Shown here: positions 7,756-35,662 of the stretch, piece after piece | Position numbering within the stretch: the stretch's first letter is position 1 | Layout of the letters: every line of letters starts with the position of its first letter | NCBI GenBank assembly: GCA_016926395.1 | Contig: JAFGOT010000031.1 | Span: forward strand, 1 to 46,986 | DNA: 46,986 nucleotides | Direction: 5' to 3' | Origin: Candidatus Woesearchaeota archaeon | GTDB lineage: Archaea; Nanobdellota; Nanobdellia; Woesearchaeales; SKGA01 | Program-made: the position numbers and the translations under genes | The notes under the pieces: generated by a model | The model's input: only the letters and a program-made list of their open reading frames with translations | What the model was told of the DNA's origin: nothing | Databases searched by the model: none

Positions 7756-7837
7756 GCCAAAGTCGCATAATCCGGTATTGCGCCAGTCTCGAAAACTGGT
7801 TCCTTTGGAATTCCCGGTTCAAATCCGGGCTTTGGCG
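7756..7837 (+). tRNA. tRNA-Ser(CGA)
   Basis: Acceptor GCCAAAG/CTTTGGC plus G73, anticodon arm CCAGT-CTCGAAA-ACTGG, long variable arm TTCC-TTT-GGAA, T arm CCCGG-TTCAAAT-CCGGG. No encoded CCA. Confidence 0.95.
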
Positions 7838-7930
7838 CTTTTTGTATTTCTCTAGCATCATTCTCAATTTAATCAGAAAAGTGACAAGATTGGTTTGTGC
7901 CAATCATTTTCAAAGAAAATTATTGTGTCA

Positions 7931-7951
7931 CAAATCCGGGCTTTGGCGCCA
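7931..7951 (+). repeat. direct repeat of the tRNA-Ser 3' end, ending in CCA
   Basis: CAAATCCGGGCTTTGGCGC (19 bp) at 7931-7949 is identical to 7820-7838, and this copy reads ...GGCG-CCA. Confidence 0.93.
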
Positions 7952-8019: not shown

Positions 8020-8148
8020 GCGGGAGTAGTTCAGCCTGGTTAGATCGCCACGCTCATAAATGCTTGTTGAGCGATGAGACGTAATTGTCAATGATTATCA
8101 ACATGTGGTGCACCGTGGAAGTCCGGAGTTCAAATCTCCGCTCCCGCA
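8020..8148 (+). tRNA. tRNA with CAT anticodon (probably elongator Met), intron about 8059-8112
   Basis: Acceptor GCGGGAG/CTCCCGC plus A, anticodon stem CCACG/CGTGG with loop CTCATA interrupted by about 54 nt at position 37/38, T arm CGGAG-TTCAAAT-CTCCG. It lacks the initiator GGG/CCC pairs. TTTATAAA at 7974-7981. Confidence 0.88.
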
Positions 8149-27528: not shown

Positions 27529-27720
27529 GTGTACTTTTTGATTCCAAGCGAAAAAGAATTTCTGGACTTTCTGAGGAAAAATCCTCATCAAACTTACACT
27601 TCTCTCTCTAAAAGATTCTCGATAGAAATGGGAACTGTTCGAGATTTGGTAAAAATGTACTCTTCTAAAATTGATGTAATAAAAATTGGAACTGCACTAA
27701 TGGTGGATGTAAAACAATGA
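27529..27720 (+). CDS. small winged-HTH protein coupled to the giant surface protein gene
   Basis: 63 aa; LDFLRKNPHQTYTSLSKRFSIEMGTVRDLV HTH pattern; AGGTG SD; ATGA overlap with the next gene. Confidence 0.65.
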   Translation: MYFLIPSEKEFLDFLRKNPHQTYTSLSKRFSIEMGTVRDLVKMYSSKIDVIKIGTALMVDVKQ

Positions 27721-30700
27721 ACAACAAAGCTACAAAAATAGGAATTTGGACGTTGTTTTTACTAGTTTTAACTCTAATATTTATGAGTGGTGCGAGTGCA
27801 ACTGTAACTTCGGTTACTATTCAGTCACCAAATCAAAACTATGTTTATTATACAAATTCAGATGTTGATGTTGATGCTTCTGTTATTTTCTCTTCACCTA
27901 CGTCTGAAGTCAATTGTTCTTTGCTTTTTGGTTATGCATTTATAGACAAAGATGCGTATTCATTAACTTCCACATCTGGAATAAATTCTTTCGTTTTTAG
28001 TCCTGACTTTTCCTCAGATGCTTCTGGAAGTACTTGGGCAGCTACTTTATATTGTGAAAACACTTCGAACTCTTTGTTAAATGCCTCTTCGACACCAGGT
28101 TTTTTTGATATAATTTATGACTCTGCAAATCCTTCTATTTCAGATAATTTCACGACTGGTAATGAAATTAGTTTAGATAGAATTTATTTTAATGTCTCTG
28201 ATGGTGAATTTGTAGACGCGGATTCTATAAATGTAACTTTTAATGGTGTTGCTGATTATACTTATGATTTTGCGAGCTCCGAATTAACTTGTAATGCTTC
28301 AGGATTGATTGTTGGTTGCAATATTCTTATTCCCGTCATCCCTGTTGGTGATTATCAAGTTTCTGTCGAGGCTTCTGATGGCGCTGGTAATACACGATCT
28401 AAATCTTTTGGAACGATGACTTTAACCAAACAGTCTCGTCCTTCATCTCATATAGTTATCACTTCTCCTTTGAATCACACTGCCGTTAATGAAGGAACTG
28501 TTAGTTTTAATTTTAACATTCAAAACGAACCTGTCTCTTTCACTAATGATTACAATTGTACTATTACAACTAATACCAGTGATTCTTACACCGAGGATAA
28601 ACATTTCACTTCTGCATCAGGTTCATTTTCTTACGATACTTTTGGTCATGAGGTTGTGGGGTGGAGTTTATATTGTTACAATGATGTACGTACTATTCAG
28701 TCACCAACTTATGTTGTATCTTTTGAAAATGCAACTATTGGTGTTCAAACAAGTCAAACTTATTTTTCACTAGAAGATGGCTTGGTTAATTATTTTGCTT
28801 TTGATTACTTAAAGAACTCCGTAAACCTGACCGATGTTTTTTCTTCATCTAGCTTTGGATCCAGTGTTGGTTTAGCGTCACATATTGGTTTTGGAAATGC
28901 GTTGTCTTTTAATGGTATTTCTGGGTTGGTTGGTTCTTATGATGCTAATGACTTTACTTTGAATCAAAATGGTTTTTCTGTATCTTTATGGTTTAGACCT
29001 TTAAGTGCAAAAGACTCATATTTGGTTAGTTCCTCAAATTCAAATTTTAGTATTAGTATAAATAGTTCTGGGTTTTTAATTAACTTTACAAATTCATCAT
29101 TGACTACTAACCGTTTGTTTGTTCCTCAAGATATGAGTTCTCTTTGGAGAAACGTGATCTTAACTAGTGATGGTTCAGATTTATTGTTTTATGTTGATGG
29201 TAACTTGGTCTTAAAACAAACTGTTGGTGATATTCAGTCAAATGTTTACGGAAGAAACATTGAATATCTTGGTCAATTATCCAACAACGATGTATTTAAT
29301 GGTTCAATTGACGAACTTCTTATTTACAATCGTGCTCTTAGTCCTTTTGAGATTAATTTACTTGCTGGAACTCAAACGCCTTATGATACTTCAACTCATG
29401 GCGACCGTTCATTATTTACGGTAATTCCTACTAATGATTATTGGAATTATCTTAATTGTTCATTATATGTTAACAACACTTATGTTGATTCCGCAGATGT
29501 TCAAAATGGAACTCGTTATACTTTTGTTTATGATATTTTATCTGATGATAATTTCAATTGGTATTTTTCTTGTACTGATACATTTAGAAATTTATCTTCC
29601 TCAAGTAAATCTGTTGTTGTTGATTATACTCCTATCGCTCCTTTGATGCTTCCTTTAAATACTTCAACTAGTAATAAATCAATTAATATAGTTGGTGCGC
29701 TAGGGATGGCAGGAGATTTAACTTTAACGTCTCTAGTTCAAGCTTATTTTGGAACTGCAACTAATACTTCCTCAACTATTCAAAACCACTCTAATTATAT
29801 TGGTGGAGGTACAGTTACTAATTCTGTTAATGCGTACGCTTTTAGAGTTAATCGATCTACTTTAGATCCTGGTGTTGATGCTTATCTTTCTGTTATGAAA
29901 AGTGGTTATGTCGCAGTTAATGCAGACATTAATACTTTGTTTGCTAGTGCTAATTCGTTTAATCCCAATCTTGAGTTTTTAGAAATTGTTAATGTGACGC
30001 CTTTCCAAGGAACATTTGTTATTGAACTTGCTCAAGACATGTTGGTTAATTTAGTTGCTGGAAATAGTGTTGTTTTCTTCACAAGCCCAAAACCTTTGGG
30101 TTGGTTTAACGCTAGTTTTGATTTGTTATCAGGATTGAATGAAATGAGCGTTGAAGGAATTGTTCATAATACTGTTGGTCCTTATTCTTCTTTTAACATT
30201 TACTATGATGATTTGTTGCCTAATTTAATACAAGGTCCTTGGTTGTCTGCTATTGGTAAACCTTGGTCTTTAGGTTTTAATGTTACTGATGATTATGGTT
30301 TAGATGATACTAGTATTTATGCTATAATTAACAACTCTTTAACTTCTAGAACTTTTAATGTTAGCAATTCTTCAGAAATACAATGTAATTCTAATGCTTT
30401 TAATGCAAGTTGTACTTTATATGTTCCTTCCTCTTTAACAAACGGAATTTACAATATTACTTTGTTCGCAAATGATGTTGCAGGCAACACAGGAAATTCT
30501 TCTGGTCACGAGGTATATATTCGTTCATCAATAAGTGCAGTTACACAAATTAATGATACTTATAGTAACGCATCAAACGGAACGATACTTGTTAATTGGA
30601 ATCCTGTTCCTGATGCATATGTTGCTTATTACAATCTATCTGTAACTAATGTTCCTGGAGCAGCTAATGTTCTTGATTGGGTTAGTGTTCCAAACACTTC

Positions 30701-33700
30701 AACAAACTACACTTTTGATAATGAAACTTTAAAAGATTATTACGGTGATTTTTTATTTGTTGATATTTATCCTGTTGATATTGCTGGTGTTACAGGTCCA
30801 ATTACTTCAACAGATGGTCTTTTGTTAGTTGATCAAACTCCTCCTGTTATGAATAATGTTTCCATTATTCCTGATAGATCTTATTGGGTTAGGTCAAACT
30901 CTCAACTTCATTTATACTTTAATTTCACTGACGATGAAACTGGGATTGCAGAATATACATATGCAATAGGTACTGCACCATATCCTCTTCCAGGTTGGAA
31001 TAGTGTTCTTGATGAAACCACAACCGTTCAAAATGATTTTGTAGTTACAGGTCTATCCTTAGCTCAAGGTGGAACATATTATGTCTCTGCACGTGCAAGA
31101 AATGGTTATCCTTTCCTTTGGGAAAATAGTCAATCACAGTATTATTCATCTAGTTCTGTGCGTGTTGATTCTGTTGAGCCTTCTGGTGGTTCTATAAGTT
31201 ATACTTCAGGTCCTTTATCGACTGGCTCAATTTTAGTTAATTATTATGTTGGAACAGATGCGACTTCAGGATATCTAAATGCTTCTGTTATGAAAAAAAC
31301 CAGTCCTTTACTTAATGGTCAATGTGGAACTTTTTCTACTCCTTATGAATTAGTTGATTGGGTTTCTTCTCCTGGTCCTGACTCTGCTTCAGTCAGTATT
31401 CAAAATGGTTTTTGTTATATTTTTGCATTATATGTTTATGATAAAGCAGGTAATTTGGATATAATTTCAGGTTTAACTGCAAATAATGTTTCTGTTGATC
31501 AAACAGAACCTTCCACTGTTGACATCACGATTGATGATGGTTCTTTAACTCCTGATAATGAAATTTCAGTTAGTTGGACTGTTAGTTCTGATTTAGAATC
31601 TGGAATTGATCATTATGAATATGCTCTTGGAAATTCAAGCAATCCTGTTGATTGGAATGAAGTTGTTGATTGGACTAATATTAGTTATGTTAATACATCT
31701 TTGATAATGTCAAATCTAAACTTAACACATTTAGAAACATATTATTTCAAACTTCGAGCTTGGAATCATCATGGATTATTTTCCACTGCAGTTTCAAATC
31801 CAATAACTTATGTTGATTTAATAGTTCCTCAACCTTTGGTTGTCAAACAAGTTGGCTTAGACACAACTTATCCTTGGGTTGATAATACTAGCGATGGAAA
31901 CACAACAATATTATTTACGGGCGAAGATAATTTAGCTTCTTGTGTGTGGTCTTACTATGATATAGAATATCTAAATCCTGGTGCGGGAATAAATTATACT
32001 CATTCTTGTTTATCTGATGGTCAAGGAAATTATACTTGTAATATTTCAAAACCAGATGGTGTTTCTGCTTTAGAAGAAGGAAATTATAATGTGTATGTTA
32101 GTTGTCGAGATCAAGCAGGAAATATCCAAAGAGCAAATACAAATACGGACGTTTCTTTTGCAAAGGATGTTGGTGCGCCACTGGTTACTGTTTCAGGCAT
32201 AACAAATGGGGCTTTATATAATCAAATACCTGTTTATATTAATATCCAAGAGGCAACTTTAGATGACGCTTATTATGAAGTAAGAACGGGTGCAGGTCTG
32301 GTTGGAACTGGAGTTTTAACAACTGGAAATAATTCTGTAACTTTACCAATTAATCCTTTAGTTGCTGAGCATTGGTTAACTGTTTATGCAAATGATAGTT
32401 TTGGTCAAGTTAATGATACAACAAACATAACTTTCTTTGTGAATTCTTCAATTCCTTCAGGATATATTTATGCTCCAACTGAATACTTAAACAAAGATAC
32501 TAATTTAACGTTTTCAATGAGCTTCTTTAATAATTATTCTTATTACATTGAAGGGGATGGAGCAATAACGGGAGTATATTCAGGTTATTATTCTAATGCT
32601 TCAATAACTACTTTTGATGATTTCAACCTTCAGATTAATGTTTCTGACTTTGAAGATGGCGACTATACTGCAACATTAATTGTTAATAATTCTGTTAATG
32701 GAACTTTAAGAACTGACACTTATTATTTTGATTTTGTTGTTGATACTGAAATTCCAGAATACTCTGACGCGAACGATCCAGGAACTGTTTATGACAACGA
32801 AACTATTGATTTGTATATTACATCATCAGAAGAGAATGTTTCGGTAATCTTTAATGGAACTACTTATTATGCTGTTCCTGTTGCTTTTGGTGATCTTGTT
32901 GCTCCTGTTGGAAGTGGAAGGTATTGGGTTCAAATTCAACCTAATAAAGTGGATGATTTCATGGATTATATGTGGGTAATTTATGATTTGGCAGGCAATA
33001 ATGAAACTATCTCTGGAAGCGTGTTTGTGAATAATAGACAAACTAGTTTTGATGATGACATCACTACTATCTTAGACTTTGCAAATGCTGATTGGTCTTG
33101 GAACTTTGATTTTTCAGATAAAGATATTACTCAAAGATATAATGACTTTGTTTGTTCAATAGAACACAATGGTAGTTTCTCTCTTGTTAATACTCCATAC
33201 TCTTGTGTTGTGGATTGGGATTACGCTTCACCTGGTGCTTATGAATTAAATGTGACTGTTGATGAATATTCTAATGGTACTTTTGTTGATTCAATAAATA
33301 AAACAGTCTATATTAATTTCTCTAATACGGCTAATACTACTTTGATGTTGAACACTGCGTATTCTGTTTCGGGCATCATTGTTGATTCTGTTCATCTGGC
33401 AGCTTCAAGTTCTATCGAAGCAAATACTTATACGACTATGTCGCGATATGGAAACAATTTGACAGGTTTGGCTACTGTTGATTATCCTAATTCACCAAAA
33501 ATAATTTTATCTGTTGATGACATTAGACTTTTTATTAGCAATATTAGTGGCGGTGACATTGGAAATTTTGCTTTCAAGGAAAAAACATTATCGACAACTA
33601 CTTACGCTTCACAGGACTTAGGTTTAAGTTATAGATATGTTCCTCTTTATTCTTATGCAATAAATATTTCATATCCTTTCCAAACCAATGATTTGATAGA

Positions 33701-34697
33701 CTTTGATGTTTCAAATTATGATTTAAGTGATATTATTCTTTACAGATATGATTTCAATTTTGTAACTAATGCGGTAAATTATACTTCAAGAACAACAGTT
33801 CCTCTTTATAGCGTAAGTAATAATCTTGCATTGTATAATATTTCAGGAATGGAAGGTTTGTTCGTTTTAGTAAATGATTCTTATATTCCTCCGCCTCCAG
33901 AGCCTGTCATTCCAAGCAGTGGTGGTCATTCCAGCAGTGGTGGTGGTTTTAGTATGCCTCCTCCTCCAACAACTATTGTTGAAACTACAACAAATGAAAC
34001 TGATGACTCGCAAACTTCTCAAGTAGTTACCCCTGTGGCTTCTTGTTTTGACAACATTCAAAATCAAGATGAAACTGGTGTGGACTGTGGTGGTATTTGT
34101 GCTTCTTGTGTTGTTGAACAATCTGATAACACTGATTCTAATTCCGAATCTAGAGAAGAAATTCCTGAGTTTATTCCTGAATCAAATACAAAAGATAAAA
34201 ACAAACCTGCTAGGTCTTTTCCTTGGTGGGCTTTAATTGCATTAGTTGTTATTGCTGCAGGTGCTGGTGTTGGTGTCATATCCTCTAAAAAACAAGCTAG
34301 TGATGTTATTCAAAAAGTAATAGATGCTGGTGATGCTAGAGATGTTGTTGATATTGCAAATTTTATTCAAATGCATGAACTTCAAAATAACGATATTCAA
34401 GATCACGAATTAGTTAGCATGGGATTCTCTCAAAATAAAATTGATTTGGCAAGATATGCGATGGCAAATGAAGCAATGGTAAATTCCGTTGTTCAATACT
34501 TAGAACAAAACACAACTAAAGGTTACACTAGTGATGAATTATGTAATTGGTTAGTTTCAAAAGATGTTCATGAGGGCGTTGTTCTTCTTGCTAAAGAAAA
34601 ATTTCAAAAACCCGTAACTAGTATGGGGTCTTTAGATGAGTCTTCTTCAATGATTGATAATTCTCCTTTGGAAACTAACAATTTAGATAAAAACTAA
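27717..34697 (+). CDS. giant membrane-anchored surface glycoprotein (signal peptide, Ig/Fn3-like repeats, LamG domain, C-terminal TM and cytoplasmic tail)
   Basis: Sec signal peptide; repeated DxAGN strands; LamG signature FSVSLWF...FYVDG...FNGSIDELLIYNRALS; very many N-x-S/T sequons; Pro/Ser/Gly/Thr linker; CFDNIQNQDETGVDCGGICASC motif; TM WWALIALVVIAAGAGVGVI. Confidence 0.88.
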   Translation: MNNKATKIGIWTLFLLVLTLIFMSGASATVTSVTIQSPNQNYVYYTNSDVDVDASVIFSSPTSEVNCSLLFGYAFIDKDAYSLTSTSGINSFVFSPDFSSDASGSTWAATLYCENTSNSLLNASSTPGFFDIIYDSANPSISDNFTTGNEISLDRIYFNVSDGEFVDADSINVTFNGVADYTYDFASSELTCNASGLIVGCNILIPVIPVGDYQVSVEASDGAGNTRSKSFGTMTLTKQSRPSSHIVITSPLNHTAVNEGTVSFNFNIQNEPVSFTNDYNCTITTNTSDSYTEDKHFTSASGSFSYDTFGHEVVGWSLYCYNDVRTIQSPTYVVSFENATIGVQTSQTYFSLEDGLVNYFAFDYLKNSVNLTDVFSSSSFGSSVGLASHIGFGNALSFNGISGLVGSYDANDFTLNQNGFSVSLWFRPLSAKDSYLVSSSNSNFSISINSSGFLINFTNSSLTTNRLFVPQDMSSLWRNVILTSDGSDLLFYVDGNLVLKQTVGDIQSNVYGRNIEYLGQLSNNDVFNGSIDELLIYNRALSPFEINLLAGTQTPYDTSTHGDRSLFTVIPTNDYWNYLNCSLYVNNTYVDSADVQNGTRYTFVYDILSDDNFNWYFSCTDTFRNLSSSSKSVVVDYTPIAPLMLPLNTSTSNKSINIVGALGMAGDLTLTSLVQAYFGTATNTSSTIQNHSNYIGGGTVTNSVNAYAFRVNRSTLDPGVDAYLSVMKSGYVAVNADINTLFASANSFNPNLEFLEIVNVTPFQGTFVIELAQDMLVNLVAGNSVVFFTSPKPLGWFNASFDLLSGLNEMSVEGIVHNTVGPYSSFNIYYDDLLPNLIQGPWLSAIGKPWSLGFNVTDDYGLDDTSIYAIINNSLTSRTFNVSNSSEIQCNSNAFNASCTLYVPSSLTNGIYNITLFANDVAGNTGNSSGHEVYIRSSISAVTQINDTYSNASNGTILVNWNPVPDAYVAYYNLSVTNVPGAANVLDWVSVPNTSTNYTFDNETLKDYYGDFLFVDIYPVDIAGVTGPITSTDGLLLVDQTPPVMNNVSIIPDRSYWVRSNSQLHLYFNFTDDETGIAEYTYAIGTAPYPLPGWNSVLDETTTVQNDFVVTGLSLAQGGTYYVSARARNGYPFLWENSQSQYYSSSSVRVDSVEPSGGSISYTSGPLSTGSILVNYYVGTDATSGYLNASVMKKTSPLLNGQCGTFSTPYELVDWVSSPGPDSASVSIQNGFCYIFALYVYDKAGNLDIISGLTANNVSVDQTEPSTVDITIDDGSLTPDNEISVSWTVSSDLESGIDHYEYALGNSSNPVDWNEVVDWTNISYVNTSLIMSNLNLTHLETYYFKLRAWNHHGLFSTAVSNPITYVDLIVPQPLVVKQVGLDTTYPWVDNTSDGNTTILFTGEDNLASCVWSYYDIEYLNPGAGINYTHSCLSDGQGNYTCNISKPDGVSALEEGNYNVYVSCRDQAGNIQRANTNTDVSFAKDVGAPLVTVSGITNGALYNQIPVYINIQEATLDDAYYEVRTGAGLVGTGVLTTGNNSVTLPINPLVAEHWLTVYANDSFGQVNDTTNITFFVNSSIPSGYIYAPTEYLNKDTNLTFSMSFFNNYSYYIEGDGAITGVYSGYYSNASITTFDDFNLQINVSDFEDGDYTATLIVNNSVNGTLRTDTYYFDFVVDTEIPEYSDANDPGTVYDNETIDLYITSSEENVSVIFNGTTYYAVPVAFGDLVAPVGSGRYWVQIQPNKVDDFMDYMWVIYDLAGNNETISGSVFVNNRQTSFDDDITTILDFANADWSWNFDFSDKDITQRYNDFVCSIEHNGSFSLVNTPYSCVVDWDYASPGAYELNVTVDEYSNGTFVDSINKTVYINFSNTANTTLMLNTAYSVSGIIVDSVHLAASSSIEANTYTTMSRYGNNLTGLATVDYPNSPKIILSVDDIRLFISNISGGDIGNFAFKEKTLSTTTYASQDLGLSYRYVPLYSYAINISYPFQTNDLIDFDVSNYDLSDIILYRYDFNFVTNAVNYTSRTTVPLYSVSNNLALYNISGMEGLFVLVNDSYIPPPPEPVIPSSGGHSSSGGGFSMPPPPTTIVETTTNETDDSQTSQVVTPVASCFDNIQNQDETGVDCGGICASCVVEQSDNTDSNSESREEIPEFIPESNTKDKNKPARSFPWWALIALVVIAAGAGVGVISSKKQASDVIQKVIDAGDARDVVDIANFIQMHELQNNDIQDHELVSMGFSQNKIDLARYAMANEAMVNSVVQYLEQNTTKGYTSDELCNWLVSKDVHEGVVLLAKEKFQKPVTSMGSLDESSSMIDNSPLETNNLDKN

Positions 34698-35197: not shown

Positions 35198-35306
35198 CTT
35201 TTTAGCAATTATTTTGAAATTGCATGGTTTAAACCCTATTTTTTTCGAATATAGATTTCATCCTTAAGGTGTATAAGGTCGTCTTAAGATTTAAATAACG
35301 ATAATA

Positions 35307-35314
35307 TTTATAAA
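35307..35314 (+). promoter_or_regulatory. TATA box of tRNA-Gly
   Basis: TTTATAAA 25 bp upstream of the tRNA 5' end. The same octamer precedes several other genes in the window. Confidence 0.65.
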
Positions 35315-35339
35315 TAAACATCTCATTCCTACATATTAC

Positions 35340-35411
35340 GCACTGGTAGTCTAATGGTTAGGATAGTGGCCTTCCAAGCCATTGATCCGGGTTCGAATCC
35401 CGGCCAGTGCA
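35340..35411 (+). tRNA. tRNA-Gly(TCC)
   Basis: Acceptor GCACTGG/CCAGTGC plus A, anticodon arm GTGGC-CTTCCAA-GCCAT, T arm CCGGG-TTCGAAT-CCCGG. No encoded CCA. Confidence 0.96.
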
Positions 35412-35453
35412 TTTATGCAATGGTAAGGGACCAATAATCTATGATTATTGTTT

Positions 35454-35470
35454 TCCCGGCCAGTGCACCA
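35454..35470 (+). repeat. direct repeat of the tRNA-Gly 3' end followed by CCA
   Basis: TCCCGGCCAGTGCA (14 bp) at 35454-35467 is identical to 35398-35411, then CCA follows. Confidence 0.9.
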
Positions 35471-35662
35471 TACATATTCTTATTAATCAAAATATATGAA
35501 ACTGATGCTAAGATATTTTGTCAGATTTATTTTAAAGGATTAAAATATAACTCTAACGTTTGAGGTGTTTATAATTAAGAATACTTAAGTATTAATTACC
35601 CTCATCGCAATGCTTATTTAACCGCTAGTTTAATAAATTCTTCTTGTCTTGTTGTCTTTATA

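Follow-up and report, generated by a model that had tools for sequence, protein, structure and literature searches.

A CCA-ending hairpin unit downstream of tRNA-Gly(UCC) in a Candidatus Woesearchaeota archaeon, probably part of a palindromic insertion module

Partial copies of tRNA genes left by integration are textbook material and small palindromic repeats are common, but the combination considered here (a spacer some tens of bases long, a single core shared by many tRNA genes and an inverted copy of the target) was not found described in the full texts searched. The locus lies in a stretch of 46,986 nucleotides from a Candidatus Woesearchaeota archaeon (GenBank assembly GCA_016926395.1, contig JAFGOT010000031.1), analysed at its full length and called the window below. 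In it, a tRNA-Gly(UCC) gene is followed by a 54-nt unit that ends in CCA and resembles an acceptor stem carrying one long hairpin. An earlier reading of the sequence (the original prediction) had taken the unit for a co-transcribed tRNA mimic or, failing that, for a collapsed integration scar or tandem duplicate. On balance we think it probable that the unit is the right-hand part of a 56-nt target-duplicating palindromic insertion module in the 3′ part of tRNA-Gly(UCC), either a non-autonomous DNA element or the product of one, and that it has no tRNA-like function.

Several known systems resemble this locus in part. MITEs (miniature inverted-repeat transposable elements), like the repetitive extragenic palindromic (REP) and bacterial interspersed mosaic element (BIME) families, are short, non-coding, multi-copy and hairpin-forming, mostly intergenic and patchily distributed, and often consist of serial hairpins. 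Insertion sequences of the IS200/IS605 type carry a hairpin beside a short segment able to pair with the target or cleavage site; their guides measure 4 nt, they do not duplicate the target and they need a Y1 transposase. tRNA minihelices and the MALAT1-associated small cytoplasmic RNA (mascRNA) offer an acceptor-like stem, a discriminator base and CCA. At attachment (att) sites of the T-loop type, repeats start within the T-loop or close to it. Archaeal viruses and plasmids, on integrase-mediated integration, leave partial duplications of tRNA genes, and the cases described in two papers span about 2-23 kb and have 44-bp repeats (PMC9897764, PMC3293823). The casposon of Aciduliprofundum boonei is reported to have a 15-bp target duplication at a tRNA 3′ end, which overlaps the tRNA by only 5 bp, and a T-psi-C-loop segment forms part of its recognised target (PMC5137440).

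A gene end duplicated around a palindrome

The genome of the window (G000) amounts to 1.02 Mb in 40 contigs and is 82.5% complete. Its tRNA-Gly(UCC) gene has no encoded CCA (ARAGORN; Rfam RF00005, 72.2 bits). The 14-mer TCCCGGCCAGTGCA at the end of this gene occurs exactly twice in the window, and 100 shuffles of the window gave no match. The first copy spans the last T-loop base, the 3′ strands of the T-stem and acceptor stem, and the discriminator. The second lies 42 nt further on, and no integrase-bearing element stands between the two. The intervening bases comprise a short T-rich trailer, an imperfect inverted copy of the repeat and the palindrome CAATAATC-TAT-GATTATTG (Table 1). A perfect complement of the repeat would read GCACTGG-CC-GGGA, against the GCAATGG-TAA-GGGA that is present.

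Much of what the original prediction saw here holds. Direct reading confirmed its parse of 35417-35470, five bases (TTTAT) past the CCA-less tRNA, and the agreement at eight of nine positions between the 5′ end of the unit (GCAATGGTA) and that of the tRNA (GCACTGGTA). Folding bore out the acceptor-like architecture as well: the 54 nt form an outer stem with six of seven base pairs and an A.G mismatch, beside a discriminator A, then a 4-bp GGGA/TCCC clamp and an AT-rich hairpin of 8 bp, with a folding energy of -21.7 kcal/mol (z = -4.3; 0 of 200 shuffles as good). The whole 131 nt of tRNA and unit fold best with the tRNA 5′ strand paired to the downstream copy.

We propose that the module runs, 5′ to 3′, from a copy of tRNA positions 60-73 through TTTAT, the imperfect inverted copy and the palindrome to TTT, and that it would sit before the gene's original positions 60-73 and CCA. 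The upstream copy would keep the tRNA gene intact and the downstream copy would be its displaced old end, since CCA and the downstream flank follow the latter as they do in the uninterrupted gene of a relative, G002 (plain tRNA-Gly(UCC) plus CCA, GGTGCACCATTTTC, with no second copy within 250 nt). Inverted copy, palindrome and old end would then make one long hairpin, whose acceptor-stem look would be incidental to a tRNA target.

The arrangement recurs at other tRNA genes. When the region downstream of every tRNA gene was scanned, as had been proposed with the original prediction, eight of the 26 in G000 proved to have an exact copy of their own 3′ part, 14-25 nt long and within 45-125 nt: Gly-UCC, Gly-GCC, Leu-UAG, Asn, Val, Ser-CGA, Ser-GCU and an intron-containing tRNA on contig C22. 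All eight copies begin at tRNA positions 49-60, in or just before the T-loop. Leu-UAA has a split downstream copy and Met a degenerate one (12/16). As a control, flanking repeats of at least 12 nt were present at only 11 of 458 random positions in the fetched loci. CCA stands only on the downstream copy at three loci (Gly-UCC, Gly-GCC and Ser-CGA), which is expected of an old gene end. At Ser-CGA, the copy proper covers 7931-7949, and the CA that comes next makes it read G-CCA. AT-rich hairpins lie in the 92-nt spacer, which has no match in 13 genomes of the genus.

The tRNA set itself comprises 25 genes from Rfam plus one at window positions 8020-8148 (forward strand), a CAU-anticodon tRNA whose intron, roughly 55 nt long, comes after the anticodon loop and which scores 47.8 bits in Rfam and was missed by ARAGORN; the total for G000 is 23 by ARAGORN, 25 by Rfam and 26 with this gene. 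More disrupted tRNA genes probably remain undetected in this genome.

One core is shared between loci. Behind tRNA-Gly(GCC) on contig C22 lies a second unit, whose 31-nt core (GGGA-C-palindrome-YTT-TCCC) shares 29 of 31 positions with that at Gly-UCC. Ahead of its CCA, the final 15 nt repeat the 3′ end of tRNA-Gly(GCC) itself and not that of tRNA-Gly(UCC), and a T6 run separates it from its tRNA. The same 31-33-nt core is found at four tRNAs, each with its own repeat and its own inverted arm: Gly-UCC, Gly-GCC and Leu-UAG of G000, and a tRNA-Glu copy in a relative (sequencing run X3, described below). These short-type members follow one plan, in the order tRNA 3′ part, T- or AT-rich spacer, imperfect inverted copy, palindrome, 2-3 bases and the 3′ part again. 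Their repeats measure 14, 15, 14 and 14 nt, compared with 16-32 nt in other members, and their spacers are of nearly equal length (42-47 nt). The T run following the tRNA is longer elsewhere than at Gly-UCC, with T6 at Gly-GCC and T7 at Asn.

The locus and the palindrome in related genomes

Sequencing runs were examined at the level of contigs, not raw reads. In runs X1 and X2, from which this DNA may derive, the whole stretch is unchanged. Run X3, from another study, represents a relative whose flanks differ from the window at 28/239 and 54/363 positions (82/602). Past 35467 it continues with TTTTCTTTC and then with 35620 onward; the CCA and the window's 152 nt at 35468-35619 are missing. The encoded CCA noted in the original prediction is real in this copy and does not extend to the X3 relative, which has TTTTCTTTC instead. 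The 152-nt stretch, which has imperfect inverted repeats near its ends (35475-35490 and 35568-35583), may be a second small insert.

In two other X3 contigs the same core is joined on its left to the 3′ end of tRNA-Glu and on its right to GGAGCA and then TTCAGCTTTTGGGGAATTTCCCCT. The same flank lies directly 3′ of tRNA-Glu in G000, without a palindrome, so that the two genomes present a filled and an empty site for the same insert, the X3 copy being a reconstruction from loose ends of 30 letters and from two contigs whose sole overlap is the repeated core. The bare site in G000 implies that the palindrome arrives with the insert. This bears on whether any mobile element is needed, as a local replication or repair error, by fold-back priming or template switching at a pre-existing palindrome, might also have produced the two copies. 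A direct plus an inverted copy around a palindrome is a known mark of such events, and both the variable repeat lengths (12-32 nt) and the tandem arrays of units in three genomes (G124, G023 and G093) would suit it. An error of this kind does not sit well with an empty site that lacks the palindrome, nor with near-identical cores at unlinked loci, and we give it very little credence.

The tRNA-Gly(UCC) locus is readable in 12 relatives, namely 11 congeners and G015 of the sister genus. It is syntenic: in the window it has an AsnC-type regulator on its upstream side and the gene of a PIG-L deacetylase on its downstream side, and by reading a PIG-L-like start also lies 3′ of the tRNA in several relatives. 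The conservation across related genomes by which the original prediction would have been strengthened was not observed, as the unit is absent from this locus in all 12; the closer strain of run X3 does have it. A BLAST search with the 71-nt mini sequence in 60 relatives returned nothing past the palindrome. Other interruptions take its place. A T-loop intron at position 59/60, 40 to about 190 nt long, is found in the tRNA-Gly(UCC) of five relatives (G009, G005, G015, G012 and G001; L040-L044); its 3′ splice site lies two bases after a CGAA/TGAA-like pairing to the T-loop. Partial copies downstream of the gene, with spacers of other kinds, occur in five (G010, G007, G006, G008 and G005). The tRNA of G010 is identical to the window's over all 72 nt, yet its 105-nt spacer is different. 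Counting G000, 10 of 13 genomes have a T-loop intron or a downstream partial copy at this gene. In six congeners the Ser tRNAs likewise have downstream copies, of 12-21 nt, and the spacer there includes the T-loop in inverted form (GGATTTG...). The T-loop-to-3′-end segment of tRNA genes is a hot spot that holds different inserts in different species. At this same gene, G012 and G001 also carry a canonical intron, and G007 (L035), where the T-loop region of the gene appears as a run of N, has after it tandem units of about 105 nt, each starting with the tRNA-Gly(UCC) 3′ end.

These comparisons bear directly on a functional tRNA mimic, in which the unit would be co-transcribed with tRNA-Gly, released by RNase P and tRNase Z, and serve as a chargeable minihelix, a decoy or a processing signal. 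Like minihelices and mascRNA, the unit has an acceptor-like stem (six of seven pairs, in a stable fold), a discriminator A and, in this one copy, CCA. The Gly-GCC paralogue keeps the pairing (G7->A7 with C66->U66, plus G.U pairs), positions 35421-35467 are unchanged in a relative with about 14% flank divergence, and no more than T3 stands between unit and tRNA at Gly-UCC. A mimic would nevertheless have to be missing from the same locus in 12 relatives, to lack its CCA in X3, and to lie behind T6 at Gly-GCC and T7 after tRNA-Asn. Its T-loop is replaced by a hairpin, no Rfam tRNA-clan model matches 35412-35470 at E<=10, and the Rfam mascRNA match lies on the true tRNA and not on the unit. The same build occurs, moreover, among many palindrome inserts, one of them at a protein gene and others at Leu, Met and Ser tRNAs that have no acceptor-like register; the Leu arm falls short of positions 71-72. 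The mimic put forward in the original prediction thus appears highly unlikely.

An intron is the other reading that the relatives bring to mind. The downstream copy with its CCA would be the real gene end, and the 56 nt before it a present or past non-canonical intron where T-loop and T-stem meet. Deleting any 56 nt within the repeat register does yield tRNA-Gly with CCA, the best fold of the 131 nt pairs the tRNA 5′ strand with the downstream copy, and the module shares its boundary with archaeal 59/60 bulge-helix-bulge (BHB) introns, which interrupt the same tRNA in five relatives with their CGAA/TGAA-type pairing to the T-loop. The palindrome itself, as CAAAAATC-AGA-GATTTTTG, lies inside the canonical intron of tRNA-Glu(UUC) in G084 (locus L086, minus strand). 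Unlike those introns, the module leaves an upstream tRNA that is complete without splicing, and a hand check found no BHB motif at any of the 15 registers (35397-35411). The 3-nt loops beside the 4-bp GGGA/TCCC helix are misplaced, in mirror geometry, and face opposing unpaired bases, the fold showing 3x2 and 1x3 internal loops. We rejected a BHB intron on these grounds, and consider any intron or intron relic very improbable. The tRNA-Glu(UUC) of G084 has two introns, canonical and 59/60, and is called neither by ARAGORN nor by Rfam at the gathering threshold.

Conforming to CAAWAATC-NNN-GATTWTTG, the palindrome has 13 copies in G000 with at most one mismatch (12 by search and the Leu-UAG copy by reading). 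Nine of these adjoin tRNA genes and seven are flanked by direct repeats of at least 14 nt. The exact pattern is present in 74 of 200 sampled genomes of the order; three of these (G137, G147 and G198) are unpublished and enter that tally only, and a reversed-pattern control gave 0 among the rows listed. Outside G000 the palindrome mostly stands alone in intergenic DNA or beside a similar second hairpin (CAGAAAT...ATTTCTG), and repeats of at least 12 nt flank it in 5 of 30 loci fetched from other genomes. Two such members, which share the build seen in G000, belong to other families of the order: at tRNA-Met of G124, two tandem units accompany three copies of the 3′ end, and at tRNA-Ser of G204 the palindrome locus has a flanking repeat. 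In loci L067-L096, from 30 genomes of the order, the palindrome often follows 5-8 nt after the CAGAAAT..loop..ATTTCTG hairpin, and its stem extensions of 3-5 bp covary (ACAC/GTGT, TGC/GCA, GTCC/GGAC). The composite of palindrome and CAGAAAT hairpin has no match in Rfam, and Rfam searches of seven palindrome loci from other genomes returned only two weak snoRNA-type matches, away from the palindrome.

Further afield, a metagenome scan for the extended core GGGACCAATAATC-N3-GATTATTG gave no match. The shorter GACCAATAATC-N3-GATTATTG matched 12 metagenome and 9 genome contigs, none with the present build; some are the intergenic copy of the G023 type, and several are flavobacterial tRNA genes followed by a terminator of hairpin and T run. 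We discarded the latter as related sequences, the likeness to the archaeal palindrome looking coincidental. In the flavobacterial loci L128, L131, L136, L141 and L142 a tRNA is followed by a terminator sharing GACCAATAATC-NNN-GATTATTGGTC; in L131, L136 and L141 all that accompanies the terminator is the final ~12 nt of the tRNA, an arrangement resembling an ordinary att duplicate.

Table 1. Features of the tRNA-Gly(UCC) locus and of the second case in the window.
Feature	Position	Strand	Basis or remark
TATA-box-like element TTTATAAATA	35307..35316	+	direct reading; ~25-33 nt upstream of tRNA start
tRNA-Gly(UCC), complete, without encoded CCA	35340..35411	+	ARAGORN, Rfam
Direct repeat copy 1, tRNA positions 60-73	35398..35411	+	repeat search
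TTTAT spacer, short T-rich trailer past the functional tRNA end	35412..35416	+	direct reading
Imperfect inverted copy of the repeat, GCAATGG-TAA-GGGA	35417..35430	+	reading, fold
19-nt palindrome CAATAATC-TAT-GATTATTG, core of the repeat family	35432..35450	unstranded	inverted-repeat search
Direct repeat copy 2, most likely the displaced original gene 3′ end	35454..35467	+	repeat search
CCA after copy 2, not kept in the X3 relative	35468..35470	+	direct reading
tRNA-Ser(CGA), second case in the window	7756..7837	+	ARAGORN, Rfam, repeat scan
Downstream copy of the tRNA-Ser(CGA) 3′ part, CAAATCCGGGCTTTGGCGC	7931..7951	+	repeat scan; same CAAATCCGGGCTTTGGCGC at 7820-7838

The TATA-box-like element listed in Table 1 is presumably the promoter of tRNA-Gly; the promoter scan used sigma-70 models, to whose coverage archaeal promoters do not belong. 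A single open reading frame of 2326 amino acids occupies window positions 27717-34697 (forward strand) and ends about 640 nt upstream of the tRNA.

The inverted arm and the possible route of insertion

What looks like the 5′ strand of an acceptor stem is an inverted copy of the adjoining repeat and not the remnant of a second tRNA, as three arms from other loci make clear. The Leu-UAG arm, GAAGCA-A-GGAA, is complementary in Watson-Crick terms to TTCC-TG-TGCTTC, a 3′ strand with which the tRNA's own 5′ strand, GCGAGGT, pairs via two G.U. This copy lacks CCA and has pairs at neither 1:72 nor 2:71, the arm stopping short of positions 71-72. The G124 arm, GAGAGTTGATT, is complementary to T-loop and T-stem sequence of tRNA-Met, as no tRNA 5′ strand is. 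At C24:25912 (locus L115, 25830-25990), which is not a tRNA locus at all, 32 nt from the end of a small open reading frame are duplicated around the palindrome; the repeat consists of the last nine codons, the stop and two more bases (the frame ends ...MCESMRFTVYS*), and GCATTG-TTC mirrors its start, giving an inverted copy at a protein gene. The pairing of arm and repeat was as good in 0/200 and 0/300 shuffles at Gly-UCC, in 1/200 and 0/300 at Leu-UAG, and in 3/200 and 7/300 at C24. MAFFT set the 5′ arms of three copies in different registers, and by reading the ends of the module are not inverted repeats of each other.

The Leu-UAG arm, as an inverted 3′-end copy and not a tRNA 5′ strand, also rules out a collapsed tandem tRNA. 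Of the two alternatives that the original prediction offered to a mimic, integration comes closer, in the form of a target duplication by inserted DNA. Its remark that recreating the 5′ strand is not what an att scar normally does was correct. An origin at the RNA level, from a tRNA 3′ fragment or a cDNA halting at the T-loop, was also considered and dismissed: the repeats at Val, Leu-UAA and Met of G124 extend 4-12 nt beyond the CCA into the flank.

Several observations weigh against the target-duplicating module. Taken over the whole family, the repeat lengths vary from 12 to 32 nt. The arm pairing at Gly-GCC is not significant (27/200 and 62/300 shuffles as good), and only 7 of the 21 repeat-bearing loci tested have a significant inverted arm at the 5% level; the arm is thus recurrent but not universal. 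Three allowed arm pairs are not Watson-Crick; read on the tRNA-sense strand, each of them is G.U, as would suit an RNA or a top-strand structure. Four X3 contigs show no difference at all over 35421-35467; at the X3 divergence of 13.6% about six differences would be expected in 47 nt, and by our own arithmetic the chance of none is ~0.001. The X3 contig that enters from the tRNA side has 12 differences in 213 nt, the 11 listed lying at 35269-35381. This near-identity could reflect selection on a host function in place of constraint on the element itself or homogenisation of its copies. Together with the G.U pairs on the tRNA strand, it leaves room for the hairpin to have a role, whether as RNA or in the form of top-strand DNA. 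At contig level no excised form was seen, and X1 and X2 show no empty Gly-UCC allele. Nor is a mobilising enzyme assigned to the palindrome module: Y1 transposase (PF01797), IS110 (PF01548), Cas1 (PF01867) and reverse transcriptase (PF00078) were not found in G000 at its 82.5% completeness, and TnpB (PF07282) reached only 20.7 bits there, below the cut-off. Across the order PF16795 integrases are not associated with the palindrome, which occurs in 5 of 13 genomes with the integrase and in 74 of 200 overall. Finally, neither standard att recombination nor staggered-cut duplication explains an inverted arm that is specific to its target.

The recombinases found in G000 are all tyrosine recombinases, four of them PF00589 proteins above the cut-off (on contigs C30, C18 and C6) and one a PF16795 'archaeal phage integrase' (on C17). 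Among the 200 genomes of the order, PF16795 occurs in 13 and Cas1 in 14, and neither tracks the palindrome; Cas1 was also not found in G010, the sole other genome sampled from the family to which G000 belongs. The genome does contain a large insert. From tRNA-Arg(UCG) to a 17-nt copy of its 3′ end, CCTCCTGGGGTCACCAT, extends a 7.4-kb, ORFan-rich integrated element (G000:C17:14600-22059, L097), with a PF16795 integrase adjoining the tRNA (E 4.8e-40). The palindrome arm CAATAATC, an 8-mer that occurs only 53 times in 1.02 Mb, stands 4 nt before its downstream repeat. This stretch is a true integrated element of the same geometry.

The tRNA-Arg element lends some weight to the idea that nothing small moved by itself. 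Large integrase-bearing elements would have entered the tRNA genes, near-complete deletion between attL and attR would have followed, and the palindrome would be an att-proximal remnant of such decayed att scars. The repeats start in or near the T-loop, as at att sites of that type. As with attL/attR duplications, an intact tRNA marks one end and a direct copy of the 3′ part the other, the old end is displaced downstream, and the hot spots vary between close relatives. Partial duplication of tRNA genes by integration is, moreover, well documented (PMC9897764, PMC3293823). Independent decay would not leave the same 31-33-nt core with spacers of 42-47 nt at four tRNAs, each with its own repeat and arm. 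The module further differs from attL/attR pairs in that no integrase lies in the few tens of bases between the repeats and in having an inverted copy of the target beside a conserved palindrome. Given also that integrase family and palindrome are not associated over the 200 genomes, we regard decay of larger elements as distinctly unlikely.

The preferred reading, a small target-duplicating insert, would place the family mostly at T-loop-to-3′-end sites of tRNA genes, with at least one member at a protein gene's end, and would have copies gained and lost between close relatives. Insertion would have proceeded by target-duplicating or att-type recombination: the latter fits the geometry and the gene content, and the four short copies, with their repeats of 14-15 nt, would suit duplication by a staggered cut. 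These repeats, which start at the T-loop, may recall the casposon; unlike a casposon, the module has no Cas1 found in its genome and no terminal inverted repeats, and other members have 12-32-nt repeats. With MITEs and REP/BIME families it shares being short, non-coding, multi-copy, hairpin-forming, mostly intergenic and patchy, often with serial hairpins. It differs from them in an inverted repeat that is central and not terminal, in a duplicated target of 12-32 nt in place of a few bases, and in its strong preference for tRNA T-loop-to-3′ ends, and no Y1 (RAYT-like, after the REP-associated tyrosine transposases) or other transposase was found. The terminal inverted repeats and fixed short duplication of a MITE are absent, and no related autonomous element was found.

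The hairpin beside a target-complementary stretch is a likeness to IS200/IS605, from which the module departs in duplicating its target, with no Y1 found in G000. At insertion, the inverted arm may pair with the target or be copied from it by fold-back synthesis; either would account for an arm that matches its target. Any RNA made from the module would probably lack a tRNA-like function. More speculatively, and in our view with only an outside chance of being right, the inverted arm could do the work in a tiny non-autonomous element of a new kind, namely a hairpin that uses its 5′ arm to base-pair with the target gene at its 3′ end. Such an arm would either programme the site of insertion, being retargetable by changes in the arm (Gly to Glu to Leu, for example), or be copied by fold-back.

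Consequences for tRNA genes and their annotation

A tempting false lead is removed by this analysis, as the unit is most likely not a chargeable mini-tRNA. For annotators, tRNA-like hairpins and partial tRNAs beside tRNA genes in this lineage are to be read as insertion products. Were the arm indeed the working part, the gene end would always be rebuilt, so that essential tRNA genes would be open to colonisation; loss of the rebuilt end would leave a T-loop intron, linking the inserts to the 59/60 introns of sister species.

In this lineage, which is of the DPANN type (named after Diapherotrites, Parvarchaeota, Aenigmarchaeota, Nanoarchaeota and Nanohaloarchaeota), the segment from the T-loop to the 3′ end of tRNA genes is a busy insertion site. 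One family of inserts, about 45-130 nt long, rebuilds the gene end there and adds an inverted copy of it around a palindrome with order-wide conservation. Together, these inserts provide concrete, datable material for the proposal of earlier work that the disruption of tRNA genes and their gain of introns are driven by mobile DNA (PMC3293823).

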